Positions 43,632 to 59,329 are shown, counted from the first letter of the stretch. The stretch: 64,000 nucleotides of DNA from Leptospira sp. (GCA_034439575.1 JAWXAQ010000015.1:160001-224000); one strand, 5' to 3'. Notes: generated by a model from the sequence alone, not told the origin. Numbers and translations are program-made.

Positions 43632-44906
43632 ATGGTAGAAAGAAAAAACCAACGAGTTGTCATTACTGGTATAGGATCTATACTACCGAATGCACTCACT
43701 GTCTCTGATTTTTGGAGTCATCTAGTCAAGGGTGAATCGCAAGTAGATTTTTTGACTAGGTTTTCTACTGAAGATTTGAGAGTCAAAACGGGTGCAGAGT
43801 TACGCCAATTCGACTATAAAGAGCATTTGAAAGATTTAGATCCTGCCCATGCGAAAAATTATAATCGAGAGACATTGGCCATCATGTCCGCATTAAGCGA
43901 TGCACAAAAAGATGCAGGACTTGACAAAAATACAGTCGCACCTAACAGGGTTGGATTTATTGACTCCTCTTCCCGCGCATCACTTGCTTGGTGGGAACAC
44001 GCATGGAATTTATATAATGAATCAAAAGACGATTCACATTTTAATAAATACGCCGTTCTGACTTCAATGGCCTCAAATCCGACCAATCTAACAGCAATTT
44101 ATGCGAACATCCAAGGGTTTGTCACGACAATAACAGCCGCTTGTGTGGGCGGTCATCACGCCGCAGCACTTTGTTTTCAAGCAATCAGAAAAAATAGAGC
44201 TGATGTGATGTATGCGGGAGGGCACGAGTTCCCTCTCCTTAAACCGCTTATGAAAATGTATTCCGATCCTTCTAGTTCAGTGATGTCTCCTGAATCTGTG
44301 AATCCAAAAAATGCCATGCGACCTTATGATAAATCCAGAGAAGGGTTTGTACTCGGTGAGGGAGCCATGTGCCTTTGTTTGGAATCATACGACCATGCCA
44401 TAAATCGTGGTGCTAGAATCTATGCGGAAATAACTGGTACTCTTAGTTACAATGAAGCAAGTCATGCTATGCGAATGGATATGACGGGCGTTAAAGCTGC
44501 CAATGGTATGAGTGATTTACTTCGCATTAGCAAACGCTCTTTGAAAGATTTTGATTATTTTTGTGGCCATGGAACTGCTACGTATAATAATGATTTGGCC
44601 GAAAGCCGCGCTCTAAAATTATTATATGACGGGGCACCAAAAACCACTTGGGCACCACTTGGATCTATCAAACCCATTTATGGTCATACGTTTGGTGCCG
44701 CTGGTATCATCAATTTAGCAGCCTCTGCTCTAATGATTCACAACCAAACACTTTGTCCGACGATTAATTTGAAAAATCCAGATGATGAATGTGACCACGA
44801 TCATGTGGCAGAAGGCTCGAGAAAAATCAAACTCAATAATATTATGTCATTGGCATTTGCCATAGGTAGCCAATCTTCATTCGTCAGTTTAGCCAAAGCA
44901 GATTAA
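43632..44906 (+). CDS. Beta-ketoacyl synthase, FabF/KAS II-like (divergent)
   Basis: RVVITGIG, TAACVGG (Cys), GFVLGEGA, GHGTAT (His) and SIK..YGHT (His); the GFGG motif is replaced by AIGS. Confidence 0.88.
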   Translation: MVERKNQRVVITGIGSILPNALTVSDFWSHLVKGESQVDFLTRFSTEDLRVKTGAELRQFDYKEHLKDLDPAHAKNYNRETLAIMSALSDAQKDAGLDKNTVAPNRVGFIDSSSRASLAWWEHAWNLYNESKDDSHFNKYAVLTSMASNPTNLTAIYANIQGFVTTITAACVGGHHAAALCFQAIRKNRADVMYAGGHEFPLLKPLMKMYSDPSSSVMSPESVNPKNAMRPYDKSREGFVLGEGAMCLCLESYDHAINRGARIYAEITGTLSYNEASHAMRMDMTGVKAANGMSDLLRISKRSLKDFDYFCGHGTATYNNDLAESRALKLLYDGAPKTTWAPLGSIKPIYGHTFGAAGIINLAASALMIHNQTLCPTINLKNPDDECDHDHVAEGSRKIKLNNIMSLAFAIGSQSSFVSLAKAD

Positions 44907-44912
44907 TATTCT

Positions 44913-46667
44913 ATGAACCAAAGAATCGCCAAAAGATTTGAAGACCCTGACCAAATGGTAAAAGAAATGTTACCACTTGGTGCTTCAATCCATTTGGCGG
45001 CGACTATGTCTAGACCCAATGCATTGATATACGCTTTGACTAGACAATTCTTTGATAAAAAGCCAGACTTCACGATCAGTGTGGCAGGTCTTCATTCCAG
45101 TGCTCATGCTCTTACTATGGCAGGTGTGATCAAAAAAGCCATCATAGGATTTGCGGGCGACAATTACCCACGTCCGCAACCAAATGCTCTTTATTCAAAT
45201 ATCTTAAAGGGAGAACCTTTCGAAGTAGAACTTTGGTCTCTCCTAACATTGATTCAACGATTGCAAGCAGGGGCAATGCGTTTACCCGGATTTGTTACTA
45301 ATTCACTATTGAAAACCGACATGATTACAGACAAATTAAATAAAACTGTGCATGTTTATCCTTCACCGGATTCAACGGAGAAGGATCCAAAAAATTTTGC
45401 AGTCGTACAACCACTTAACCCAGATTTTACTTTAATCCACGCAGTTCTTGGCGATGAAGATGGAAATTTACTCCTTACAAATCCTTCAGGTGAAGGAATT
45501 TGGGGAGCCATGGCCGCTACTAAAGGTGTGATAGCAACTTGTGAAAGAATTGTCCCAAGAGGTTCAATACCAGCAGAACTTATATCTATTCCTGGGACCA
45601 GAGTGATATCTATCGCCGAAGCTAAGTTTGGTGCACATCCTCAATCATTGCGCATATTTCCACTCCCTCATCTTGAGATTTATAATGAATTGTCAACTTA
45701 TATGGATGACTACGAGTTTCAAATTGATGCAAACCATGCGGCGGCTGGAGATGAAAAACTAAAGAAACGTTGGATGGATGAATGGGTTTATGGACCGAAG
45801 AGCCATGAAGATTACCTTCGTTATGTGGGCAGCCAACGCCTCAGAAAATTAACAAAACTTCCAGACCCTCAACCCATGTTACCGCCCCAAGATGCAGAAT
45901 CAGTCAATGATTCCGAACAAATGATCATTCTTGCCGCGAGAGCCATTATGGAACATGTGAAACGGCGAGGATATACGACACTCCTAGCTGGAATCGGAGC
46001 CGCACATATCGCTTGTTGGACGGCCGCTCGCCTTCTTGCCAAAGAAGGAATTCCGGTTCACGTCATGACAGAACTCGGTTTTTATTCCATGACACCTTCT
46101 GTGGGAGATGTATTTCTCTTTAGCCAACTTCATGCCAATGGATCACAAGGTCTTTCGGACATCACACAGATTTTAGGTATGCTCGTTCCCGATAAGTGTT
46201 TGGGAGTGATGGGTGCAGCAGAAATAGATTGGTTTGGAAACGTGAACTCTATTGCCACAGCAAAGGGAAAATTTATCGTAGGTTCGGGCGGTGCCAATGA
46301 TATTGCCTCAACAGCAGATTGTATTATTGTAGCAAAAGCGATACGTCAAAGGTATGTAAGAAAGGTCAATTTTATTACCACAAATGGGGATAGAGTCAAA
46401 GAAGCGGTTTGCCAATTCGGTCGATTCAGAAGGGATAAAATGGAACATCTTTTTGAATTCACTAATTGGATAGCCCCTCCCTCAGATCCCGAAATGGAAG
46501 TGGAAGAAGCAGTTTTAAAATTCACAAGTTGGTTTCCTCCAGATGAAATTCCTCCCAAGGATGAGCCAAAGCCCACTTCTGAGGAATTGACAATTCTTAG
46601 ATCACTTGATCCAGATCGAATTTATATAGAGCAGTTTATGGTTTACAGAAGCCTTCCAGGAGATTGA
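44913..46667 (+). CDS. Fused alpha/beta class I CoA-transferase (GctAB-like)
   Basis: PDFTLIHA..GDEDGN and GAHP (alpha part); LAGIG, MTELG, GAAEIDWFGNVNS and GSGGAND (beta part). Confidence 0.82.
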   Translation: MNQRIAKRFEDPDQMVKEMLPLGASIHLAATMSRPNALIYALTRQFFDKKPDFTISVAGLHSSAHALTMAGVIKKAIIGFAGDNYPRPQPNALYSNILKGEPFEVELWSLLTLIQRLQAGAMRLPGFVTNSLLKTDMITDKLNKTVHVYPSPDSTEKDPKNFAVVQPLNPDFTLIHAVLGDEDGNLLLTNPSGEGIWGAMAATKGVIATCERIVPRGSIPAELISIPGTRVISIAEAKFGAHPQSLRIFPLPHLEIYNELSTYMDDYEFQIDANHAAAGDEKLKKRWMDEWVYGPKSHEDYLRYVGSQRLRKLTKLPDPQPMLPPQDAESVNDSEQMIILAARAIMEHVKRRGYTTLLAGIGAAHIACWTAARLLAKEGIPVHVMTELGFYSMTPSVGDVFLFSQLHANGSQGLSDITQILGMLVPDKCLGVMGAAEIDWFGNVNSIATAKGKFIVGSGGANDIASTADCIIVAKAIRQRYVRKVNFITTNGDRVKEAVCQFGRFRRDKMEHLFEFTNWIAPPSDPEMEVEEAVLKFTSWFPPDEIPPKDEPKPTSEELTILRSLDPDRIYIEQFMVYRSLPGD

Positions 46668-46668
46668 T

Positions 46669-47652
46669 ATGAATAGCATGGGTGCAGGACAGTTAAAATA
46701 TTTAGGTGTTGAATTCCGCGGAGTTGGACACTACCTCCCCGAGCGAATCGTGTATAACGATGAAATCCGTTCTCGATTGAAATACCCAGAAATGCACCCA
46801 GCAGAAAAAGCTGTGATCGGAAATATTGGTGTCACGGAACGTCACCGTGTAAATGAAACAGAGACGGTTCCCTTTATGGCAATGAAGGCCGCACAAGACG
46901 CATTAGCTGATGCTAAGATGAAACCGGAAGATATTGATTTATTTATTTTGGCCAATTGGACAGACAGATACTACCTTCCCGATCTCGCACCTCAAGCCTC
47001 AAAACTAACAGGGACAAAAAATGCACTCGCCTTTGATATTTCAACAGCTTGCACTGGTTTTGTGCATGGCGTTCAAATGGCGGCATGTTATTTACAATCT
47101 GGTCGATGGAAAAACGCCCTTGTCATCGGTTCTGAACGATTTAGTGTCAGAACAAGAATGGGTGGATATGGTGAATTTACTGCGGGTGATGCGGCGGCTG
47201 GTGTTGTATTATCGCATACAGGTAGTCAGACGACAGGTCTTATTGATTCATTTTTAGTAGATGAGGCAGACTTAGCCGATATTATCGTGACAGGTCCACC
47301 ACCACAAAGTTATGTGAAAAGTTATCCTGAACTTGTGACAAATGCAGCAGACCTCACATTGAAAGCATTTGATATGCTTATGGAAAAACATGGCTTAAAA
47401 GAAACCGATGTGGATTGGGTAGTTCCTCATCCAGGTACAGATATTGTTGTTCAAGATGTACTAAATCGGATTAAATTCCCGCGCGAAAAAGTATTGGGAA
47501 ATTTTGACAGAGTGGGAAACGCATCGGCGGCTTCAATCCCTATCGTTATATCGGAATATTATAAAAAAGGAATAATCAAGAAAGGTCAGCTGTTGTTAAC
47601 ACCTGCTGTCGGTGGAGGCTTCTATTGGGGTGGCCTTCTTTTCCGTTTCTAG
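46669..47652 (+). CDS. FabH/KAS III-like condensing enzyme (divergent)
   Basis: DISTACTGF (Cys), GDAA, PHPGT (His), GNASAASIP (Asn) and GGGFYWG. Confidence 0.88.
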   Translation: MNSMGAGQLKYLGVEFRGVGHYLPERIVYNDEIRSRLKYPEMHPAEKAVIGNIGVTERHRVNETETVPFMAMKAAQDALADAKMKPEDIDLFILANWTDRYYLPDLAPQASKLTGTKNALAFDISTACTGFVHGVQMAACYLQSGRWKNALVIGSERFSVRTRMGGYGEFTAGDAAAGVVLSHTGSQTTGLIDSFLVDEADLADIIVTGPPPQSYVKSYPELVTNAADLTLKAFDMLMEKHGLKETDVDWVVPHPGTDIVVQDVLNRIKFPREKVLGNFDRVGNASAASIPIVISEYYKKGIIKKGQLLLTPAVGGGFYWGGLLFRF

Positions 47653-47672: not shown

Positions 47673-50600
47673 ATGATTTCATTTTCTGGCTACCATATCC
47701 GTAAGCGGATGAATGCTGAAGGTTCACCTTCCCAAGTTTATTTAGGCGTATCAAATGATGACGGTAAAGAAGTCGTCATTAAATTTATCTCTATCTCTGA
47801 TCCTTTACATGCAGCAATTGTTAACTTAAGAAATGAGTTTGAGATCCTCACTTATTTACATGGCCATGGTTTAGGGATTAAACCTTTTGAATTCAGAAGA
47901 TTACCTGATGGGCATGCGCTTGTCATGGATTATTTAAAAGGTTTGTTCCTTCCTGATATCGTTGCAAATAAAGATGACCACCAAATGCCACTCGGCATGT
48001 TTTATGATGTCGCCATTAGTTTAGCCGAAGACCTCGCAGAATTGCATCGCCACAAAGTGATGCATAAAGATATCAAGCCAGATAATATTATTTATTTTCC
48101 AGAAACTAACAAAGCAAAGTTGATAGACTTTGGTATTTCAACTAGACTTTCCAAAGAAGAAAGTGGTTTTTATGCACCTAACCAATTAGAAGGTTCAGTC
48201 CAATACATTTCTCCAGAACAAACGGGAAGGATGAACAGGTCAGTCGACTATAGGACGGATTTTTATTCCTTGGGTATTTTATTTTTTGAATTAGCCGCAG
48301 GTCAATTGCCTTTCAAAGGCTCTGATTTAATGGAAATCATTCACTCTCATATTGCGAAGCCGCCAAAAAATCCAACGGACATAAACTCAAAAATACCTGC
48401 TTCCCTCAATGCTATCATCTTAAAGTTATTAGAAAAAAATGCAGAAAATCGTTATCAAACTTCTTATGGATTAAAATTCGATTTAGAAAAATCCCAAAAA
48501 CTTTTCAAAGATGGCAAACTAGACGAATCATTCCCGTTAGGTGCTAGAGACTTCTCAGAAGAATTTCGTATACCTCAAAAACTTTATGGTCGTGAAGAAG
48601 AACTCAAACAGCTACTTTCTTCCTTTAATAAAGTTGGACTTGAAGGTACAACTGAAGTTGTATTGATTGGTGGCTATTCTGGTGTTGGTAAATCATCACT
48701 CGTCAAAGAAGTTCAAAAACCGATCACTGCTCTTCGTGGTTATTTTTTAACCGGCAAATACGACCAGTATAATCGTAGCGAACCATTTAGTGCCATCTTA
48801 CAGGTATTATCCTCACTTGTTCGGATGATCTTAACTGAACCTCCCGAATCAATTGCAAGATGGAAAGAAAGAATTCTTTCGGCATTAGGTAGCAATGGTA
48901 AGGTGATAACTGACATTTTACCTGATTTGATTCATATTGTTGGAGAACAAAAAAGCGTAGCCGAAATGGGAGCTAGTGAAAACGCAAACCGTTTTTACGC
49001 TGTGTTTTTAGAATTCATTCGAGTGTTTGCTGATCGTGAACATCCACTCGCCATCTTTTTGGATGATATGCAGTGGGCGGATTCTGCATCCTTACAACTT
49101 CTCCGAACACTTTTAGATGATAGATCAACTGGTTCACTATTTATCATGTTAGCATACAGAGATAATGAAACAGATGCGAATCATCCATTTACTTTACTTA
49201 TTGAAGATATCAAAAAAGAAAGTGGATCTCTACCTTCTATCATACTTAAACCACTTTCAAATGCGAATGTTGCCGAATTATTAAGTGACTCACTATATAC
49301 CCCAAAGGCCAATGTACAGCCATTAGCTGATCTTCTCGCTTCAAAAACAGGCGGAAATCCATTTTTCATTACTGAACTACTCAAACAATTAATCCGAAAA
49401 GATTTGATACGTTTCGATGGCTCTGCGGGTTCAGAAGGCCAAGGTGCTTGGATTTGGGATCTCGCCAAGATCAAAGAAGCTGCCATCTCAGACAATGTCG
49501 TCGAGTTGTTATTACAAAGGATGCGTTCTCTTCCCAAAGAAAGCCAAGATTTGCTCCGAACAGCATCAAGTATCGGTAACCAATTTGACCTCTATACACT
49601 AGCTCAAATCACTCATTACAGTTATAGCGAAATAGTAAAGTTAGTTGGTGATACAGTCAGAGAAGAACTTTTCATTCCGCTTGGCGATGATTATCGCAAA
49701 ATTGATTCACTCGGAAATGAAGATAATGATGAAAATAAAAATACTGCCATTTCCATCCGTCTCAGGTTCCAACATGACCGTGTTCAACAAGCTGGTTATG
49801 AATTGTTATCTGCGGATGAAAGACCAAAACTCCATCTTGCGATCGCCAAAGTATTATTAGCCTCCACTTCCAAAGAACAACTCGAAGAGAAAATTTTTGA
49901 TATAGTTGGACATTGCAATAAAAGTGTCAAAGCGACAACCAACAAGGATGATTATCGTCAATTTTTAGACTTGAATTTGACTGCCGCCAAACGTGCCAGA
50001 AGTGCGGCCGCTTATTCTCCATGTCTAGATTATCTCAAAACAGCTGAACTTCTTTTGAATCTTATTTATCCCGACGATAATAAAGTTTGGAGCGCAGAAT
50101 ATGAACTTGCGTATGATTTGTATCGAGGATTAGCGGAAGCTGAATACCTAAATGGAAATTTTGAAGCCTCAGAGAAACTCATTTCAAATATTCTCAAACA
50201 TGTTAAAACTCCATTAGAGAAAGCAGAAACATATAAAATCTTAATTATCCAATATTCACTAAAAGCAGCTTACAAAGAATCAGTGGATGCTGGACTAGAT
50301 GCACTTAGCCTACTTGGGATCAATATTTCCAAAGAAAATGTGGATGAAGCGATTGGCAAAGAAGTAGCCAGAATCAAAGAACTTTCTGAAGGTAAAATCA
50401 CTGAATCACTGATTGATGCACCTTTGATGGAAAATACGGAGATGAAGGTTGCTGTGACTCTCCTAACAGACCTTATGAGTCCATGTTGGAATTCCTATCC
50501 AAACATGTTTCCATTGTTAGTTTTTCGAACTGTAAATCTTTATTTGGAACATGGTTTAAATCCAGTTTCATATGGTTATTCTTGTTATGGTATCATTCTT

Positions 50601-53027
50601 GGAAGTGGATTTGGCCAATTCAAAGATGGTGATGATTATGGAACTCTTGCCTTCCGTATCGCAGAAAAATTTCAATCCAAGTCTGACTTGACAAAAGCGG
50701 CTAACGTTCTTGGTAATTTTACAAGTCCTTGGGTTCGTCACGTTAAACATTCGGAAGAAATAAATAGACAAGGTCTAGAAGCATCATTAGAATCCGGGGA
50801 ATTCCAACACGGGTCTCTTGGGGCAATGAACACACCTGTTTGTTTATTTTTCCAAGGAAAACAACTTTCCGAATTCACAAATGATATCAATAGACTTTTA
50901 TCCTTCGGCAAAAAAGTAAAGAGTATCCTAGCAACCGACACGGTAATGGCGTTTGACCTGATCGTAAATAACTTACGTGGTCTCACCCCTGCCGCATTAG
51001 AATTTAGAAATGCTACAATCACAGAAGAAGAGTATTTAAAAACTTGTGAAGAACACAAAGGTTTGTATTCCATCACACTTTATAATATTCTAAAAGCCCA
51101 AGCTTTATATATTTATGAAGAACCAGAAGAGGCGCTTAGGTTATTAGAGGAAGCAAACAAAAATATCGTTTTCCTATTTGGCCTCGTAAGCAATGCAGAG
51201 TTGAACTTTTTTATATCTTTATGTTTGTCTAGTTTGTACAAAATCAAATCAACAAGCGAAAGAAAAGAGATCATCGTCCGCATCAAAGCAAATCAAAAAC
51301 AGATGAAAATCTGGGCTCAAAATTCTCCTGAAAACTTCTATCACAAATTTCTTCTCATAGAAGCAGAACTTGCTAGATTAGAATACAAAAACTGGAAAGC
51401 TGCAAAGTTATATGACCAAGCAGTAACTGAAGCTCGCGCAGGTGAATTCGTCCAAATGGAAGCGATCATTTCCGAAGTTTCTGCTAGGTTTTGGTTATCA
51501 AAAAAGAATGATCGTAATGTAGCCGAATACTATACCGACGCATACAAGTTATACGAACAATGGGGTGCCACACGCAAGTGTACTGAATTAAAAGAACGAT
51601 ATCCTGATTATATCATTGAAAATCGCCAATTCACTGGCTCCAAAAATTTTGCACTTACCATTTCTGCAACGACCACAGATATTTATTCTGGTCAATCTCT
51701 TGACTTACAATCAGTAGTTAAAAGCTCTGTAGCCATTTCTGGAGAAATTCAATTCGAAAGTTTGATTACAAAATTGATGTCCATCATGATGGAAAATGCG
51801 GGCGCCGAAAAAGGTGTACTGCTTTTACGCGACGGCGAAGGGTTGTTTGTCGAAGCTGAACATTCCGTAGGAAAAGGCGAGATGCGAACTTTGATGCACG
51901 AACCGTTAGAAACATTTATGAATGTTCCACGTTCGGTGATCTATTTTACCGAACGAACTCGTGAGATTTTGGTATTAAACTGTGCGACCAAAGACACTCG
52001 ATTTGCCATTGATAAGTATGTCCAAGAAAACCAAATTAAATCTGTATTTTGCGTTCCGATTTTAAAGCAAGGTGCCTTGTCGGGTATCCTCTATTTAGAA
52101 AACAATTTATCGGAAGGAGCCTTTACACCAGAAAGGCTTCAAACCATTGGCTTACTCAGTTCACAAGCGGCGATCTCCCTCGACAATGCCCTACTCTACC
52201 AAAGTTTGGAAGAAAAAGTTCGTGATCGTACACAAGAGTTAGCTCATGCTAACGATGAATTGGCGGAGAAAAACAAACATATCACAGAATCGATCACTTA
52301 TTCACTTAACATTCAACAAGCGATGTTACCTGCTATGGATGCGCTCAAACAATCATTTAACGATTACTTTGTGTTGTATATGCCAAAGGATATTGTTTCT
52401 GGAGACTTCTTTTGGCATGCCAAAAAAGATGATTGTGTGTTACTCGCTGTTGCCGATTGTACTGGTCACGGAGTTCCAGGCGCACTGATGTCGATGATTG
52501 GTATCAATTCACTTAATGCTATTGTGAATGAAAAAGGTATCACAGATCCTGCAAAAATTTTAGAAGAATTAAATATTCGTGTTCGCACTGTTTTGCGACA
52601 GGCTGAAAATGATGCTAACTCAATGGATGGTATGGATATTTGCCTAATTCGTTATACGGGAAACTCACTTCAATTTGCTGGTGCGAAACGTCCACTTTAC
52701 ATCTATGGGCCAGAAGGTTATAGAGAGTATAAGGGTGATAAGTCTTCCATTGGGGGAAGACAAAAAGAAGAATTGAGAACCTATACAACTCATGAGATAT
52801 CGTATACACCTGGTAAAACGGTTGCATATCTATCCACTGACGGATATACTGATCAATCAAATACGGAACGAGTTCGAGTATCGACAAAGAATTTTTTGAA
52901 AATTGCGGAAGAGAATCTTTCAAAGTCAGGCGAAGCCCAAAAGGATGCCTTTTTGTCCTTTTTACGAAGTCACATGGGAACAGAACAACAAAGAGACGAT
53001 ATCACGATCGCAGGTATCGTGATTTAA
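47673..53027 (+). CDS. Multidomain Ser/Thr kinase - AAA ATPase - helical repeat region - GAF - SpoIIE/PP2C phosphatase (SiaA position)
   Basis: HKDIKPDN, DFG, YISPEQTGRMNR; Walker A GYSGVGKS, Walker B IFLDD; GAF LYLENNL..GAFT; PP2C VSGDFF, ADCTGHGVPGA, TDG and RDDIT. Confidence 0.9.
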   Translation: MISFSGYHIRKRMNAEGSPSQVYLGVSNDDGKEVVIKFISISDPLHAAIVNLRNEFEILTYLHGHGLGIKPFEFRRLPDGHALVMDYLKGLFLPDIVANKDDHQMPLGMFYDVAISLAEDLAELHRHKVMHKDIKPDNIIYFPETNKAKLIDFGISTRLSKEESGFYAPNQLEGSVQYISPEQTGRMNRSVDYRTDFYSLGILFFELAAGQLPFKGSDLMEIIHSHIAKPPKNPTDINSKIPASLNAIILKLLEKNAENRYQTSYGLKFDLEKSQKLFKDGKLDESFPLGARDFSEEFRIPQKLYGREEELKQLLSSFNKVGLEGTTEVVLIGGYSGVGKSSLVKEVQKPITALRGYFLTGKYDQYNRSEPFSAILQVLSSLVRMILTEPPESIARWKERILSALGSNGKVITDILPDLIHIVGEQKSVAEMGASENANRFYAVFLEFIRVFADREHPLAIFLDDMQWADSASLQLLRTLLDDRSTGSLFIMLAYRDNETDANHPFTLLIEDIKKESGSLPSIILKPLSNANVAELLSDSLYTPKANVQPLADLLASKTGGNPFFITELLKQLIRKDLIRFDGSAGSEGQGAWIWDLAKIKEAAISDNVVELLLQRMRSLPKESQDLLRTASSIGNQFDLYTLAQITHYSYSEIVKLVGDTVREELFIPLGDDYRKIDSLGNEDNDENKNTAISIRLRFQHDRVQQAGYELLSADERPKLHLAIAKVLLASTSKEQLEEKIFDIVGHCNKSVKATTNKDDYRQFLDLNLTAAKRARSAAAYSPCLDYLKTAELLLNLIYPDDNKVWSAEYELAYDLYRGLAEAEYLNGNFEASEKLISNILKHVKTPLEKAETYKILIIQYSLKAAYKESVDAGLDALSLLGINISKENVDEAIGKEVARIKELSEGKITESLIDAPLMENTEMKVAVTLLTDLMSPCWNSYPNMFPLLVFRTVNLYLEHGLNPVSYGYSCYGIILGSGFGQFKDGDDYGTLAFRIAEKFQSKSDLTKAANVLGNFTSPWVRHVKHSEEINRQGLEASLESGEFQHGSLGAMNTPVCLFFQGKQLSEFTNDINRLLSFGKKVKSILATDTVMAFDLIVNNLRGLTPAALEFRNATITEEEYLKTCEEHKGLYSITLYNILKAQALYIYEEPEEALRLLEEANKNIVFLFGLVSNAELNFFISLCLSSLYKIKSTSERKEIIVRIKANQKQMKIWAQNSPENFYHKFLLIEAELARLEYKNWKAAKLYDQAVTEARAGEFVQMEAIISEVSARFWLSKKNDRNVAEYYTDAYKLYEQWGATRKCTELKERYPDYIIENRQFTGSKNFALTISATTTDIYSGQSLDLQSVVKSSVAISGEIQFESLITKLMSIMMENAGAEKGVLLLRDGEGLFVEAEHSVGKGEMRTLMHEPLETFMNVPRSVIYFTERTREILVLNCATKDTRFAIDKYVQENQIKSVFCVPILKQGALSGILYLENNLSEGAFTPERLQTIGLLSSQAAISLDNALLYQSLEEKVRDRTQELAHANDELAEKNKHITESITYSLNIQQAMLPAMDALKQSFNDYFVLYMPKDIVSGDFFWHAKKDDCVLLAVADCTGHGVPGALMSMIGINSLNAIVNEKGITDPAKILEELNIRVRTVLRQAENDANSMDGMDICLIRYTGNSLQFAGAKRPLYIYGPEGYREYKGDKSSIGGRQKEELRTYTTHEISYTPGKTVAYLSTDGYTDQSNTERVRVSTKNFLKIAEENLSKSGEAQKDAFLSFLRSHMGTEQQRDDITIAGIVI

Positions 53028-53071
53028 CAAAGATGATAGTATGATATTAGAGGAGAAATGTTAAAAATTAT

Positions 53072-53623
53072 ATGCAAAAAATGGATATCTTAACCTACGA
53101 ACAGTACAAAACCATGTCGGATCACCGACTCCTGATTCACTTTAAGGGTGCTCTATACCAAGACATCCTTACAGAATTAGGCAGTATTATACAGACCTCG
53201 ATGAAGGGTGAAACTAAAATTAAGAAGATTTTTGCCGTTTTTGTCGAACTTGCTCAGAATATTCTTCATTATTCTCTTGAAAGGATAGCGAATCCTGACG
53301 AATCTACATCTGGAGTCGGTATGATTGTGGTGACGGAAAGACCAGAAGGATATTATGTCAGTTCTGGAAATTATATTTCGTCAGATAAAATCACGGGAAT
53401 TGAGGAAAAGATCAAATTTATAAATGAGCTCTCTCCCGAGGAAAAAAAATCATACTACACAAAACAATTGCGCTCCGATCGACCAGACGATAGTAAAGGT
53501 GCTGGAGTTGGGCTTATCGACATTGCTCGAAAGTCTGATGCACCGCTTGAGTATTCGATCGAAAATGTTCCAGAAGGGAAATCCTTCTTTACATTAACCG
53601 CATTTTTCAAGAAGGAAGATTAA
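53072..53623 (+). CDS. siaB: SiaB family protein kinase
   Basis: FVELAQNILHYS, SGN and SKGAGVGLIDIARKS; directly upstream of a SiaC-like gene. Confidence 0.88.
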   Translation: MQKMDILTYEQYKTMSDHRLLIHFKGALYQDILTELGSIIQTSMKGETKIKKIFAVFVELAQNILHYSLERIANPDESTSGVGMIVVTERPEGYYVSSGNYISSDKITGIEEKIKFINELSPEEKKSYYTKQLRSDRPDDSKGAGVGLIDIARKSDAPLEYSIENVPEGKSFFTLTAFFKKED

Positions 53624-53626
53624 TCA

Positions 53627-54001
53627 ATGGAAACGATTCGCATCGCAAGTACAAAAAATTCACCCGAAGTCACTCTCGATTTTGAGAATGGAATCGCTGA
53701 AGTCGCAGGAGAATCTTATCCTGAAAATGCCGTCAGTTTTTTTAAACCCGTTTTCGAATGGCTTAATCATACTATTTCGCAAAAGAAGCCCTTTAAGTTT
53801 TTATTTAAATTAGATTATTTTAATACTTCATCTTCTAAATGCATTATCGATATTCTGGATCTACTTCAAATTTATCATACTAACGGTGGTAAGATTAACG
53901 TCGAGTGGTACTATCGCCAAGACGACGAAGATATGAAAGATACTGGTGAAGAATTTTTAGAAGATGTAGATTTACCTCACGAACTGATTGCTTACAAATG
54001 A
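53627..54001 (+). CDS. siaC: SiaC family phosphoprotein (DUF1987)
   Basis: T..SPEV, GESYPENA..FF.PV..WL, YFNTSSSK and WYY..DDEDM...GEEF. Confidence 0.92.
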   Translation: METIRIASTKNSPEVTLDFENGIAEVAGESYPENAVSFFKPVFEWLNHTISQKKPFKFLFKLDYFNTSSSKCIIDILDLLQIYHTNGGKINVEWYYRQDDEDMKDTGEEFLEDVDLPHELIAYK

Positions 54002-55443
54002 GTGGTGTTTTCGAAGAAGAACATGAAGCCTGGAGCCAAATCCAAGAGGCTCTCAAACAACCAAACCTCAATACCTCAGAATTAAAAAATCTGGCAGATA
54101 CTATGTCTGCTAGATTTGGTAACCTTTTAAAACAAACAGAAAAACTAACAAAAGTTGGCGATTCCGCACAAAATCGATTGATGCGAATCCAAAACGAATT
54201 ACAAAATTCAAATTCAAAATTAGAAAAATCTATACGAAATCTCCACCTACTCTCTGAGTTAGGAAAAGTCATCACCTCTTCGTTAGACGCAAAGAAAATT
54301 TTATCAGAATTATATAATCAACTGAAAGATGAAATGGATCTAGATATCATTTCTGTAGGAAGTTACGACCAAGAATCAGACAGCGTAAAATATAAATTCA
54401 GTCTTAACCAAGGCAGTTATGTGCCTTCGATTTTTTTAGAAAACTTAAATGAGGACAATTATTCTTCTATTTGCATTCGCGGGAATAAAGAAGTCATTTT
54501 AGAAGATTTAAACTTAGAAACACCAGAACGTATTGCAGGCCTTCGCAAACAATGGGGAGAAGAAATTCGATCTATCGTTTTTATTCCATTAAAAGTAGAA
54601 GACAGAGTTGTGGGTGTTTTCACCATTCAAAGTCGCAATGCAAATGCTTACAATTACCAACAACTCAATATTATACGATCACTTGCAAGTTATCTTGGTA
54701 TTGGTCTAGATAACGCAGATGCATACCGTAGTTTATCTAAAAGAAACAAAGATCTAAAATCTTCTTTAGAGAAAGTTCGCTCATTAAATGAAAATTTGGC
54801 GCTCGAACGTCAAAAATCTGAGAATTTATTATTAAACATTTTGCCAGGTCCTATCGCAGAACGCCTCAAAAGTGGTGAAGAAATCATTGCAGACTTTTTT
54901 CAAGATGCTTCTGTTTTATTCGCAGATATCGCGGGTTTTACTGTCCTCAGTTCCAAGATGAATGATGCGACTAAACTAGTTTCAATATTGAATGATATTT
55001 TTCGTGATTTTGATAACATCACCCAAGAGTTTGGTTTAGAAAAAATTAAAACGATTGGTGATTGTTATATGTTAGCTGGTGGAATTCCAAATGCAGCACC
55101 TGATCACTTGGACCGCATGGCTAAAGCAGCCCTTCGTTTTTGCCATGTTTTTGAAAAAATCAAAAATGATTGGGGTCTTGATATCAATGTTCGTATTGGA
55201 ATTCATTCTGGCGAAGTAGTCGCTGGTGTGATAGGAAAGTATAAATTCGTATATGACCTCTGGGGTGATACTGTGAACATAGCTTCGCGTATGGAATCAC
55301 ATGGCCAAGTGGGCAGAGTGCATGTATCGAAAGAAGTTTACAATCGTTTGAAAGATAGTTATCATTTTGAAGCTCGTGGTGAAATTGACGTCAAAGGAAA
55401 AGGAAAGATGGAAACATGGTTCCTTGGCTCTACTAAAAATTAA
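53998..55443 (+). CDS. Coiled-coil + GAF + class III adenylate cyclase (SiaD position)
   Basis: SENLLLNILP, FADIAGFT, EKIKTIGDCYM and YDLWGDTVNIASRMES; K and D specificity residues indicate ATP. Confidence 0.9.
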   Translation: MSGVFEEEHEAWSQIQEALKQPNLNTSELKNLADTMSARFGNLLKQTEKLTKVGDSAQNRLMRIQNELQNSNSKLEKSIRNLHLLSELGKVITSSLDAKKILSELYNQLKDEMDLDIISVGSYDQESDSVKYKFSLNQGSYVPSIFLENLNEDNYSSICIRGNKEVILEDLNLETPERIAGLRKQWGEEIRSIVFIPLKVEDRVVGVFTIQSRNANAYNYQQLNIIRSLASYLGIGLDNADAYRSLSKRNKDLKSSLEKVRSLNENLALERQKSENLLLNILPGPIAERLKSGEEIIADFFQDASVLFADIAGFTVLSSKMNDATKLVSILNDIFRDFDNITQEFGLEKIKTIGDCYMLAGGIPNAAPDHLDRMAKAALRFCHVFEKIKNDWGLDINVRIGIHSGEVVAGVIGKYKFVYDLWGDTVNIASRMESHGQVGRVHVSKEVYNRLKDSYHFEARGEIDVKGKGKMETWFLGSTKN

Positions 55444-56133
55444 TTAAGTTTGAACTTTTATCCCTATTTGAATCAACCGTAATAGAGCAACTAACTGTTG
55501 CTCTATTTTTTTGACATCTTCCTCAGTTTTTGCAGATCGGATGTTCCTTTCGTTTAAGTTAGCAAAACCATGAACAGCACTCCAAACGGACATAGATAAT
55601 GTTTCTGCATCATCATCTTTTTTAAAAACCCCTCTCTCTTGCCCAAGAGCTATGATATCGTAAAGACCCATATATGCCTCGCGACCTACAATGGAAAGCT
55701 CTTCGGGAACAGGTCCTTCTAAATAAATTTCACCACTAAACATAAGTTCGGTGCGTCTTGGATTTTTCCAAGCCAATCTTATATAATTCTCACCAGCCTG
55801 ATTTAATTTTACAATAGGATCGTCACTGAGATTCCAAGCATCTCGCAAGGTATCTCTCAATTCTTTGAAACCCAGGGAAGTGATGGCATAAAGAAGATCT
55901 ATTTTCTTAGGAAAATGGCGGTATGGTGCCGTATGACTCACACCAATAGCTGCCGCGACATCACGTAAACTAAGATTATAAACACCGCGTGCCTCCAAAA
56001 ATTCGCAAGATTTAATTAAAACTAGATTTCGAAGGTCCCCATGATGATAATTTGCCTCTATTAATTGTCCTTTGGATTTTGCCTTTTTTGTTTGAGAGAT
56101 TAGGGATTTTTTTTTAGTAATATTTTTTTTCAT
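55444..56133 (-). CDS. TetR family regulator (WHG-type)
   Basis: YHHGDLR, LSLRDVA..IGVSHTAPYRHF and WSAVHG. Confidence 0.92.
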   Translation of the reverse strand: MKKNITKKKSLISQTKKAKSKGQLIEANYHHGDLRNLVLIKSCEFLEARGVYNLSLRDVAAAIGVSHTAPYRHFPKKIDLLYAITSLGFKELRDTLRDAWNLSDDPIVKLNQAGENYIRLAWKNPRRTELMFSGEIYLEGPVPEELSIVGREAYMGLYDIIALGQERGVFKKDDDAETLSMSVWSAVHGFANLNERNIRSAKTEEDVKKIEQQLVALLRLIQIGIKVQT

Positions 56134-57235: not shown

Positions 57236-57673
57236 ATGAATGCATCACAAATTTTTCAAATCGTAAATCCATTAGCTGGAATGGCATGGATACTTCTAAT
57301 TGTCATTCCAAATTGGAAGTATACAAAATTGATAACTTCTGTTATCTTACCTGCATTAATTTTTGCAGGGATTTATGTTTTTTCCTTGGGCCTTTCTTTT
57401 GGTCATTCTGAAGGCGGATTTGGTAGTTTGGAAGAAGTTCGAAGTTTATTCGCGAACGACAACGCATTACTTGCCGGTTGGATTCACTACCTAGCTTTTG
57501 ATTTATTTGTAGGAACTTGGGAGATGGAAGACTCTCAAAAGAATGGTATCTCAAGATTTATTGTCGCCCCATGTATGTTTTTAACATTTATGTTTGGTCC
57601 GACAGGTCTATTGTGTTATACGGTGATCAAATTGATAATAAAAAAAAATCTATCATCCTCCATAAACGTCTAG
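57236..57673 (+). CDS. ABA4-like (DUF4281) membrane protein
   Basis: GFGSL.EV..LF, LAGWIHYLAFDLFVG and LTFMFGPTGLL. Confidence 0.88.
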   Translation: MNASQIFQIVNPLAGMAWILLIVIPNWKYTKLITSVILPALIFAGIYVFSLGLSFGHSEGGFGSLEEVRSLFANDNALLAGWIHYLAFDLFVGTWEMEDSQKNGISRFIVAPCMFLTFMFGPTGLLCYTVIKLIIKKNLSSSINV

Positions 57674-59329
57674 TAAGGATATAATTCTTTCGTATCTTCC
57701 TAGTTTCTCTTCATCTCCTTCTAATTCCGCGATCTCAAGTTCTTCCAGAGCTAGGTCGCGGCCAGTTTTTCCATCCTTATTCTTAAGATTTGCCTTTGCA
57801 CCCGATTCTAGTAATAAAGCTAATATGGCAGAGTGTCCAAATTTGCAACTTTCGTGTAGGGACGAATTGTTATTGAAATCTAAAATATCAACGATAGCTC
57901 CAGCTTGGATTAATTTTTTTGCAAGCGATGGTTCCCCAAAAAGGGCGCACCAATGTAAGGCGGCCATTCGATTTTCTGATTGGTGATTCACGTCTATTCC
58001 AAGACTTATGAAAGTATCCAAAATCGAAAGTTTATCTTGAAGGTGCATTTGACTATTTTGACAAAGTTTAAAGACCGCAGTCTCACCTACAGTGTTTTGA
58101 TAATTTGGATCAGCACCTGCTTCTAACAAAAGCTTGGCGCAATGAAAACCATCTCCAGAAACTGCTTCTTCGAGCAATGAAAAACCCAATGGATTACTGT
58201 CTTCATCGTCCTTTACATAATTGGGCGAAAAACCTGATTCTAAGAGTGCCGCTAGACTTTCAGCATCATCCCTTGTGATCATAGTAACAGGGTCTTTAGG
58301 AATTACGATGCGATGGGAGATATCATCTAGGATTTCCTGGATTTCTTTGGGGTATCTTTTTTTTAAAATTTGAATGTAACTTTCATTTTTATGAGGAGAG
58401 CTTTTTATTTTTTTCTTTAAAGTAATCCAAAAGATCTCTTCGACGATCACTTGATTTGCGATCATAAAAACAATCGCTTCGTTCAATGTTTTTTCAAAAA
58501 GCGGTATCTCAAATAAAATGTTTTCTTGTAAGAATTTTAAATTTTGATCTTCGTTTGTATCATCATTTCTCCAAACATTGATTAGATCTAAAAAAATATC
58601 ACTTTTTTCTTTTTCAGTAAGTCGATTAAAACTATCTTGAACATCAAAAATATTTCCAGAAATAAGTAATACTTTTGACGTTAGTTGGTGTGAAATGTTT
58701 TGTGGAAGAACAACTTTGTTTGCACTATCAATAGTAAAATCTACTATAATAATTTTTGTCGCATGAAATGATCCAAAAATATAACTGTTATGTGAATCAG
58801 GAATCGCTAAATAAATTTTTCCTATCACTTCATGTGGGGAATCTTCCTCGATAAATATGGAAAGTCTATAAGCGGCATGTGCTTTATAGATGTCTGATAC
58901 ATTTAATTCACGATTTAGATTTGGTGGGTCACTGGGTTGAATATCAAATTGAAGGCCTTTTAATTTCTTCGCATCGCTAATTCCTGTGATCGAAATGAAA
59001 TGTTTGGGATTTATGATATCTGATTCATGGATTGGTAAAAATAACACTCGTTTGGCAAACCAATAAACATTAAAACTTTCTATAGATTGGCCACTCAAAT
59101 GACCAGAAATATAATTGTCTGGTATCGATTGATTGAAATCCAAATCGAATGAAATCTCTTTTTTTGAGATTTGATTTTCAGTCTTAATAGAAGATACGGT
59201 TACAACAAAAGAAAAAGGTGTATGTGCTCGACAACGTATACATCGAAATTTTCCTTTTTTGCCATTCACCTTCTCTTCTGAAATTTCATGGTCGGCTAGG
59301 CAATGTTGGCATCGCAATAATACTTTCAT
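57653..59329 (-). CDS. Zinc-ribbon + ankyrin repeat protein
   Basis: N-terminal CQHC...CIRC; C-terminal ankyrin repeats (LLLEAGADPN, ALHWC, SLHESC..GH). Confidence 0.85.
   Translation of the reverse strand: MKVLLRCQHCLADHEISEEKVNGKKGKFRCIRCRAHTPFSFVVTVSSIKTENQISKKEISFDLDFNQSIPDNYISGHLSGQSIESFNVYWFAKRVLFLPIHESDIINPKHFISITGISDAKKLKGLQFDIQPSDPPNLNRELNVSDIYKAHAAYRLSIFIEEDSPHEVIGKIYLAIPDSHNSYIFGSFHATKIIIVDFTIDSANKVVLPQNISHQLTSKVLLISGNIFDVQDSFNRLTEKEKSDIFLDLINVWRNDDTNEDQNLKFLQENILFEIPLFEKTLNEAIVFMIANQVIVEEIFWITLKKKIKSSPHKNESYIQILKKRYPKEIQEILDDISHRIVIPKDPVTMITRDDAESLAALLESGFSPNYVKDDEDSNPLGFSLLEEAVSGDGFHCAKLLLEAGADPNYQNTVGETAVFKLCQNSQMHLQDKLSILDTFISLGIDVNHQSENRMAALHWCALFGEPSLAKKLIQAGAIVDILDFNNNSSLHESCKFGHSAILALLLESGAKANLKNKDGKTGRDLALEELEIAELEGDEEKLGRYERIISLLDVYGG

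Follow-up and report, generated by a model that had tools for sequence, protein, structure and literature searches.

A probable Sia-type partner switch with a predicted adenylate cyclase output in Leptospira

To our knowledge, the Sia switch has so far been studied solely as a regulator of one cyclic di-GMP (c-di-GMP) enzyme in Pseudomonas. A stretch of 64,000 nucleotides (nt) from Leptospira sp. (GCA_034439575.1 JAWXAQ010000015.1:160001-224000; hereafter the window, in which all positions without a locus label are counted) raises the question of what such a switch would control when siaC is followed by a cyclase of another class. Four co-directional open reading frames (ORFs) lie on the + strand at 47673-55443. 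They encode a giant protein of 1784 amino acids (aa) in the slot of SiaA (47673-53027), a SiaB-family protein kinase of 183 aa (53072-53623), a SiaC-family phosphoprotein of 124 aa (53627-54001), and a 481-aa cyclase made up of an N-terminal helix, a GAF domain and a class III catalytic domain (53998-55443). The genes are separated by gaps of 44 bp and 3 bp and then overlap by 4 bp. Both the ORF coordinates and the Pfam and NCBIfam matches agree with an earlier note on this DNA, which had described four tightly linked genes in the order PP2C protein, SiaB, SiaC and cyclase with this spacing. We consider it likely that the unit acts as a Ser/Thr partner switch of the SiaABC type, with a homodimeric class III adenylate cyclase as its output in place of a diguanylate cyclase.

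The kinase and its substrate were assigned using family models and comparison with solved structures. SiaB scored 170.4 bits against NCBIfam NF038262 (SiaB_fam_kinase; cut-off 85) and matched Pfam DUF6272 at 1.3e-41, with chain A of 6KKO as its sole PDB match (8.3e-23). SiaC reached 141 bits against PF09345 (DUF1987; cut-off 24.5), and its sole PDB relatives were 6KKO_C and 6K4F (3.3e-21), with the NTSS motif aligned. The phospho-acceptor motif YFNTSSSK, described as intact in the earlier note, occupies SiaC residues 64-71, with the codon of Thr67 at 53825-53827. Thr67 aligns with the NTSS threonine of Pseudomonas aeruginosa SiaC, which is the phospho-acceptor Thr68 according to the available text of PMC8457831 and PMC7647112. 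N66, T67, S68, S69 and K71 were invariant among 21 homologues. SiaC is present as a single copy in the window's own genome and shares 93% identity with a SiaC assigned to L. ryugenii.

The phosphatase component lies at the C-terminus of the giant protein, as a SiaA-like PP2C domain (aa 1586-1779, nt 52428-53009; Pfam SpoIIE/PP2C, 1.8e-19) in which the conserved motifs SGDFF, DCTGHG, STDGY and RDDIT were located. The last 285 aa had a single PDB match, the SiaA-PP2C structure 6K4E (8.5e-45), which extended over the helical linker before the PP2C domain. The remainder of the protein starts with a Hanks-type Ser/Thr kinase domain (aa 16-263, nt 47718-48461; Pfam Pkinase, 2.3e-35) carrying the motifs VVIKF, HKDIKPDN, DFG and SPE. 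It continues with an AAA_16/STAND NTPase domain (aa 303-491, nt 48579-49145; Pfam AAA_16, 1.2e-38) whose Walker motifs are intact (Walker A, GYSGVGKS), a long helical repeat region, a GAF domain (aa 1362-1503, nt 51756-52181; Pfam, 4.2e-11) and a coiled-coil linker leading to the PP2C domain. These matches confirm that a Hanks kinase and a PP2C domain are combined in one 1784-aa protein, as had been noted before. The membrane-anchored HAMP-PP2C form of SiaA was not matched, and the N-terminus is formed by the kinase and AAA_16 domains without an N-terminal hydrophobic segment. The highest 19-residue hydropathy window, a crude average on the Kyte-Doolittle scale and not a membrane-helix prediction, reached 1.74 at residue 1165 within the helical repeat region. 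Judged by these Kyte-Doolittle windows only, the earlier description of the protein as soluble is roughly supported, and the protein is probably cytoplasmic.

The output enzyme belongs to a family different from that of the diguanylate cyclases. Following a GAF domain (aa 97-238, nt 54286-54711; Pfam GAF_2, 5.6e-11) and a conserved linker element, LLLNILP, the cyclase ends in a class III nucleotidyl cyclase catalytic domain (aa 301-476, nt 54898-55425; Pfam Guanylate_cyc, PF00211, 4.2e-62, 209 bits), and no GGDEF domain was matched by Pfam in this protein. With these assignments, all of the families that the earlier note had proposed to search for (SiaB, SiaC/DUF1987, Guanylate_cyc, SpoIIE and AAA_16) were matched. 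Alignment to mammalian adenylyl cyclases 5, 8 and 9 and to bacterial adenylate cyclases placed the metal residues at Asp310 and Asp355, the adenine-specifying residues at Lys351 and Asp420, and the transition-state residues at Asn427 and Arg431. All six were invariant in six of six aligned Leptospiraceae orthologues. In class III cyclases, a Lys/Asp pair specifies ATP, and the pair Lys351/Asp420, which bears out the K and D residues named in the earlier note, therefore predicts cyclic AMP (cAMP) as the product. A guanylate cyclase was considered and rejected on the same two residues. An AF2 model of the cyclase monomer placed a short helix at residues 6-19 and a long one at 26-94, which leads into the GAF domain, and then a long helix at 220-279, which emerges from it, and a short one at 284-291 before the catalytic domain; its confidence was low (mean pLDDT 71, pTM 0.41), and it was used just for the order of secondary-structure elements. 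The window's genome also contains nine matches to the cyclase at E<=1e-40 on several contigs, indicating many class III cyclase paralogues.

Whether SiaC could act on this enzyme depends on the region before the GAF domain, for which Pfam and NCBIfam scans of the window's cyclase yielded no model. We assign to it a predicted SiaC-docking module (aa 1-95, nt 53998-54282) with the core motif LLKQTEKLTKVGDSAQNRL at aa 43-61 (nt 54115-54183 correspond to aa 40-62); the helix quoted in the earlier note corresponds to residues 40-61. Using cyclase aa 1-95 as a phmmer query, we searched 3627 ORFs of at least 60 aa from the window, L001 and 80 SiaC loci. These loci were the best 80 of 589 confirmed, so that the set leans to relatives of the Leptospira SiaC. 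Apart from the gene itself, which was seen in both the window and L001, matches at E<=0.01 were obtained for 19 ORFs from 17 loci, 15 of them at E<=0.001, and all 19 adjoin siaB/siaC. Five were Leptospiraceae cyclases. The other 14 comprised, by Pfam, three GGDEF proteins (L007, L008 and L010), five HisKA/HATPase_c histidine kinases (L008, L009, L013, L015 and L020), three class III cyclases without a GAF domain (L021 from Ignavibacteria, L033 from Cloacimonas and L017 from Acidobacteriota), two small proteins without a Pfam domain (L012 and L032), and one short ORF near a contig end (L013:2409-2735) that was left out of the Pfam scan. Among the three cyclases, the match in Cloacimonas was weak (E 0.007) and the gene in Acidobacteriota is divergently placed. 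The survey of siaBC neighbourhoods that the earlier note had suggested, covering these 80 loci, thus found both GGDEF and cyclase outputs, and histidine kinases in addition.

The modules share a specific pattern rather than general helical character. Their alignment reads F..E...L, followed after about 30 residues by Y..LL.Q..KLT.[IV][GSA]D..Q..L, with conserved positions at Phe5, Glu8, Tyr/Phe40, Leu43, Asp55, Gln58 and Leu61. Asp55 and Gln58 of the cyclase stalk are invariant across Leptospiraceae. When a profile of 20 modules was compared with 177,635 PDB sequences, the best match was P. aeruginosa SiaD (7E6G_A, E 0.0055), ahead of a designed helical protein at E 0.13. The profile aligned to the SiaD stretch LEKVARISDRYQQM, with the alignment to 7E6G_A covering LSERYHKQLRRLEKVARISDRYQQMMRD, and aligned more weakly to the first SiaD motif, which ends in RIARISDGFQ. 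The available text of PMC8457831 names R74, K77, V78, R80, I81, S82, D83, R84, Y85, Q86, M88, R90 and D91 as SiaC contacts on SiaD, and reports that Thr68 of SiaC inserts between two parallel stalk helices of SiaD. The profile-aligned stretch holds these contact residues, which map by alignment onto cyclase residues 46, 49, 50, 52-58, 60, 62 and 63. We rejected the explanation that the N-terminal matches arise from coiled-coil noise, since all 19 stand beside siaBC, the conserved positions are specific and SiaD ranks first in the PDB.

A structural model of the complex is consistent with the same interface. Two copies of cyclase aa 1-95 with two copies of SiaC scored 0.82 in three of three runs, compared with 0.01 for the best of three controls; 58 of 80 solved complexes reach the mark applied to such models, as do 2 of 110 mismatched pairs. 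The runs agreed in at least 96% of their contacts, and the partner's pLDDT was 91 or higher. The predicted interface comprises residues 3-7, 45-46, 49-60 and 62 of the cyclase and residues 31, 35-36, 64-68, 70-72, 74-75 and 102-113 of SiaC, and 12 of the 13 mapped SiaD contact positions fall within the cyclase side. In the model, Thr67 contacts stalk residues 50, 51, 53, 54, 55 and 57 of both helices. This prediction of SiaC with the cyclase N-terminus, which had been put forward as a check on the locus, supports the predicted binding of SiaC to the N-terminal stalk. Together with the rank of SiaD 7E6G in the PDB and the siaBC-only neighbourhoods, it supports the resemblance to the SiaC-docking helix that the earlier note had pointed out.

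Based on these data, we propose the following mechanism. By homology, SiaB would phosphorylate SiaC at Thr67, and the SiaA-like PP2C domain at the C-terminus of the giant protein would strip this phosphate. Unphosphorylated SiaC, two copies per dimer, would dock on the N-terminal helical stalk of the cyclase, with Thr67 wedged between the parallel stalk helices at the KLTKVGDSAQNRL motif. Docking would stabilize the stalk dimer and, through the GAF domain, the coiled coil and the linker, favour an active catalytic dimer that makes cAMP from ATP. Phosphorylated Thr67 would be unable to fit, so that SiaB would switch the cyclase off. Because the PP2C domain ends a probably cytoplasmic protein with a Hanks kinase, a STAND NTPase and a GAF domain, the balance between phosphatase and kinase would most likely be set by an intracellular ligand or nucleotide state, and the cyclase's own GAF domain may provide a second, ligand-dependent input.

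To see how far the unit is maintained, we examined 114 Leptospiraceae genomes, 71 of which carry SiaC. Its distribution is uneven: within the window's own GTDB genus it was found in 5 of 41 genomes, including that of the window, whereas in the two largest other genera it was present in all (22/22 and 24/24), as it was in a third genus (8/8). From the species names of the SiaC relatives, we infer that the genera with 22/22 and 24/24 hold the pathogenic and intermediate Leptospira. A search with the helix and GAF part of the cyclase (260 aa) gave matches at E<=1e-10 in 65 of the 114 genomes, in every case with one directly downstream of siaC on the same strand, and full-length cyclase orthologues in the window's own genus were confined to 4 of 41 genomes. 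At orthologue grade (E<=1.5e-83), 68 genomes carry the GAF-PP2C end of the giant protein, 61 of them at a distance of 300-1500 bp upstream of siaC. In the remaining seven it is on another contig, in six cases within an assembly of 90 to 660 contigs. Based on this co-occurrence of SiaC, cyclase and GAF-PP2C across Leptospiraceae genomes, the four genes are thus kept or lost together. Paralogues of the giant protein with 31-36% identity and about 1760 aa occur elsewhere in many Leptospiraceae genomes. In L. interrogans ATCC 43642 (L006:4064-9406), the giant gene appears as a pair of ORFs, of 1633 aa and 132 aa, in place of a single ORF of about 1790 aa, which could reflect a frameshift, a sequencing error or a real break.

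The docking module extends far beyond this family. The 20-module profile was compared with 1.84 billion representative proteins and matched 1052 at E<=0.001 and 266 at E<=1e-10. Domains were classified in the best 150 of the 1052 representatives. In 148 of these the match starts no later than residue 26; 61 have a length below 200 aa, and many of the short ones may be fragmentary. Pfam matches at E<=1e-5 in this set were HATPase_c (41), HisKA (38), GGDEF (21), Response_reg (9), Guanylate_cyc (7), SpoIIE (7), Hpt (4) and Pkinase (3). Histidine kinases are the commonest partners of the module. On these domain counts, cyclase outputs are a minority within a large modular docking family, and only one of the seven module-bearing cyclases, the Leptospiraceae type, has an intercalated GAF domain. 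Two fusions would tie the module to SiaB and SiaC independently if they are real genes and not merged calls: P0215 carries a SiaC domain (aa 11-120) followed by the module (aa 131-216), and P0227 carries the module (aa 2-72) followed by a SiaB (DUF6272) domain (aa 258-428).

We therefore rejected a unique rewiring event, given the conservation in Leptospiraceae and the module-bearing cyclases beside siaBC in L021, L033 and L017. Of the rewired switch proposed in the earlier note, the wiring to a cAMP cyclase is supported, with a shift of emphasis: it is not a singular case, as the unit is conserved in Leptospiraceae and its docking module is a widespread, portable one. There is about an even chance that SiaC is a general plug-in controller whose targets are marked by an N-terminal module of about 90 residues, among them an infection-relevant Leptospira cyclase, lic12327. 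The module would then allow SiaC targets to be predicted from sequence. If this is true, threonine phosphorylation would, across many phyla, switch histidine kinases, diguanylate and adenylate cyclases, PP2C phosphatases and Ser/Thr kinases, and Ser/Thr partner switches would feed cAMP, c-di-GMP and two-component signalling.

Other siaBC loci in the survey show further arrangements. In a Chloracidobacterium MAG (L008:9809-12926), siaC, a GGDEF gene, siaB and a histidine kinase gene occur in this order and both enzymes bear the docking module, so that a single SiaC may govern both outputs. The Bacteroidota loci L036, L041, L047, L050, L052 and L078 contain siaC in two or three copies. A second siaB is also present in L036, L041, L047 and L052, where the genes form tandem siaB-siaC pairs. 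In L050 a single siaB precedes two siaC genes, and in L078 the second siaC lies some 2.7 kb upstream. Many other Bacteroidota loci have a convergent gene of about 1030 aa after siaC, rather than a same-strand enzyme. In the Cyclobacteriaceae loci L053:1149-4196 and L080:10423-13458, the gene after siaC encodes about 1010 aa, with a TerB-like N-terminus fused to an ABC-2 type transporter, and phmmer did not detect the docking module in this protein.

A probable counterpart of the unit in L. interrogans has an infection phenotype. A transposon sequencing (Tn-Seq) study lists lic12324 as 'PK, AAA_16, GAF, SpoIIE' and lic12327 as 'GAF, AC/GC' (PMC5100919). As reported there, fitness in hamsters was reduced for both lic12324 and both lic12327 transposon mutants. 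Single tests of the lic12327 mutants showed attenuation, while their growth in culture was normal, and lic12327 had been found in earlier work, cited there, to be induced at physiological osmolarity. The main text of PMC5100919 treats lic12324 and lic12327 as separate signalling genes without invoking Sia and has no mention of lic12325 or lic12326. The insertion sites in lic12324 and lic12327 are 3.8 kb apart, which fits the geometry of giant gene, siaB, siaC and cyclase in L006. From the domain lists, the two intervening locus tags and the insertion spacing, we infer that lic12324-lic12327 is the L. interrogans counterpart of the four-gene unit, with lic12325 encoding SiaB and lic12326 encoding SiaC. 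The proposed mechanism predicts that loss of the phosphatase and loss of the cyclase act in the same direction. It supplies a testable mechanism for two infection-phenotype genes that have so far had none, and it predicts that the kinase and SiaC genes between them are the control point. If it is true, lic12327 would be the output of a cytoplasmic kinase/STAND/GAF/PP2C sensor, and this would be the first defined upstream pathway for leptospiral cAMP signalling.

Several observations weigh against a Sia-type switch on an adenylate cyclase. The PP2C region matched only positions 384-653 of the 658 in the NCBIfam SiaA model, with 206 bits against an equivalog cut-off of 700 bits, and the equivalog models kinase_SiaB and phos_prot_SiaC gave 102.2 and 107.3 bits against cut-offs of 225 and 150. 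Because these cut-offs were not reached, the PP2C, SiaB and SiaC parts are best regarded as members of the Sia families, not strict equivalents. The Hanks kinase and STAND NTPase of the giant protein have no explained role. On the output side, the cyclase has a single docking motif and SiaD two, and SiaD Ser82, which bonds Thr68 in the crystal according to the available text of PMC8457831, corresponds to Gly54. The PDB profile match is modest (E 0.0055, 20 bits), and helical or coiled-coil-like sequence can inflate such scores. As a like complex, 7E6G, is already solved, the pass of the complex model may reflect likeness or recall only, and the model used custom alignments and a 2:2 stoichiometry unlike those of the tool's calibration. 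By the helix and GAF query, 6 of the 71 SiaC-bearing genomes (G032, G051, G087, G088, G097 and G110) lack an adjacent cyclase match, although G032 is broken at a contig end there. The correspondence with lic12324-lic12327 relies on domain lists, tag spacing and insertion coordinates rather than an annotated record, and the lic12324 phenotype could be a polar effect on downstream genes. Finally, binding, phosphorylation, product and sign of regulation are all predictions, and the SiaD mechanism, in which the stalk leads straight into the catalytic dimer, is not directly transferable to an enzyme with a GAF domain between the two.

This last point bears on an alternative that retains the same parts and the same docking but reverses the sign, with unphosphorylated SiaC holding the cyclase inactive or sequestering its stalk until phosphorylation releases it. 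With a GAF domain interposed, clamping of the stalk need not activate, and activity is deduced only; moreover, the module also occurs on PP2C phosphatases (7) and kinases (3) among the best 150 proteins, for which activation by dimerization is not obvious. Nevertheless, catalysis by class III cyclases, as by GGDEF domains, depends on a dimer of catalytic domains, which favours activation. In addition, the only SiaC studied activates by stabilizing the stalk dimer, as the available text of PMC8457831 describes, and the lic12324 and lic12327 mutants shift fitness in the same way (PMC5100919), as expected for activation, although a polar effect would do likewise. We regard the reversed sign as unlikely.

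Somewhat less likely still is that the cyclase responds to its GAF ligand only, while SiaB, SiaC and the giant PP2C protein act elsewhere and the linkage reflects co-expression. SiaC evidently has other kinds of partner, as 63 of the 80 siaBC loci, mainly from Bacteroidota, lack a module-bearing neighbour, and the kinase and NTPase of the giant protein have no assigned role. However, the docking motif is kept with its Asp55 and Gln58 invariant, the module was found only beside siaBC in the survey, the complex model passes its controls, SiaC is single-copy in the window's genome and the cyclase follows siaC in 65 genomes. We consider it very improbable that the enzyme makes a product other than cAMP, being a guanylate cyclase or another nucleotidyl cyclase, or that it is catalytically silent. 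Specificity was deduced from two residues and promiscuous class III cyclases exist, but the six canonical residues are invariant in 6/6 orthologues, Lys351/Asp420 is not a Glu/Cys-type pair, and the best PDB relatives are adenylate cyclases. A SiaABC-type switch that activates a cAMP-forming cyclase remains the reading that we prefer.

Sequence features around the locus bear on the extent of its transcription unit. A terminator-like hairpin with an 11-bp stem and a T run (55481-55507, + strand), found by consensus scan only, begins 38 nt past the cyclase stop and lies inside the 3' end of a convergent ORF with a Pfam match to the TetR family (55444-56133, - strand); it is likely the 3' end of the four-gene unit. 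Promoter-like sites were no more frequent than in shuffled sequence (32 versus 39.2 +/- 6.9). Short contigs from two metatranscriptome runs of one study (X22 and X24) lie on the 3' end of the PP2C gene, siaB and siaC, and one contig in each run spans the siaB/siaC junction, although DNA carry-over is possible in such libraries. A contig at the siaC/cyclase junction has just 14 letters on the cyclase side and was not counted as bridging. Neither transcription of the genes nor an operon is established by these contigs. Upstream, a fatty-acid-type gene trio (43632-47652, + strand) encodes a KAS II-like beta-ketoacyl synthase, a CoA transferase and a KAS III-like protein, and the KAS III-like gene stops 20 bp before the giant kinase/PP2C gene. 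This gene is found in the same place in L002 and L. interrogans L006, the two other Leptospiraceae loci whose upstream sequence reaches far enough, so that the transcription unit may be longer than four genes. A functional tie of the switch to lipid metabolism is possible. Farther downstream, the gene at 57653-59329 (- strand) encodes 558 aa, with a zinc ribbon at the N-terminus and ankyrin repeats at the C-terminus, and adjoins a gene for an ABA4-like membrane protein (57236-57673).

The closest known system is SiaABCD of P. aeruginosa (PA0172-PA0169; 6K4E, 6KKO, 6K4F and 7E6G). Both systems have a PP2C phosphatase, SiaB and SiaC with the acceptor threonine, and the gene order of phosphatase, kinase, SiaC and output is identical. 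Both outputs also begin with an N-terminal helical stalk carrying a SiaC-binding motif, for which a 2:2 clamp with the threonine between the helices is predicted in Leptospira. The differences lie at the two ends of the pathway. SiaA is a membrane HAMP-PP2C protein, whereas in Leptospira the phosphatase domain ends a 1784-aa kinase/STAND/GAF protein that lacks the N-terminal part of SiaA. The output in P. aeruginosa is the GGDEF protein SiaD, with two docking motifs and Ser82, whereas that in Leptospira is predicted to be a class III adenylate cyclase with a GAF domain, one motif and a glycine. The window's organism is itself an environmental Leptospira, different from L. interrogans.

The cyclase part in turn resembles the cyanobacterial CyaB1 and CyaB2, in which one or more GAF domains precede the class III catalytic domain, joined to it by a helix, and bind cAMP to regulate the enzyme. 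We know of no partner-switch protein or SiaC-docking helix in CyaB1/CyaB2. Switches of the STAS type on diguanylate cyclases, HptB-HsbR-HsbA-HsbD in P. aeruginosa and BgrSTUWV-BgrR in Sinorhizobium, are cited in the available text of PMC8457831. There, too, a second-messenger cyclase is bound and modulated by a protein that is switched by Ser/Thr phosphorylation, but the switch proteins are STAS domains instead of DUF1987/SiaC and the output is c-di-GMP. The available text of the same eLife paper puts forward the general idea that proteins of the DUF1987 family modulate their neighbours, and that of a comparative paper (PMC9239204) cites SiaABCD solely as a c-di-GMP case. In a literature search that left most subscription journals outside, no paper was found linking SiaB/SiaC to an adenylate cyclase or to Leptospira. 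Compared with Pseudomonas, what appears new here is the messenger, the GAF ligand input at the cyclase, and the Hanks kinase, STAND NTPase, helical repeats and GAF domain in place of the membrane and HAMP part. The locus would thus join the three-part Sia switch, together with its docking motif, to a predicted cAMP enzyme and a very different cytoplasmic sensor.

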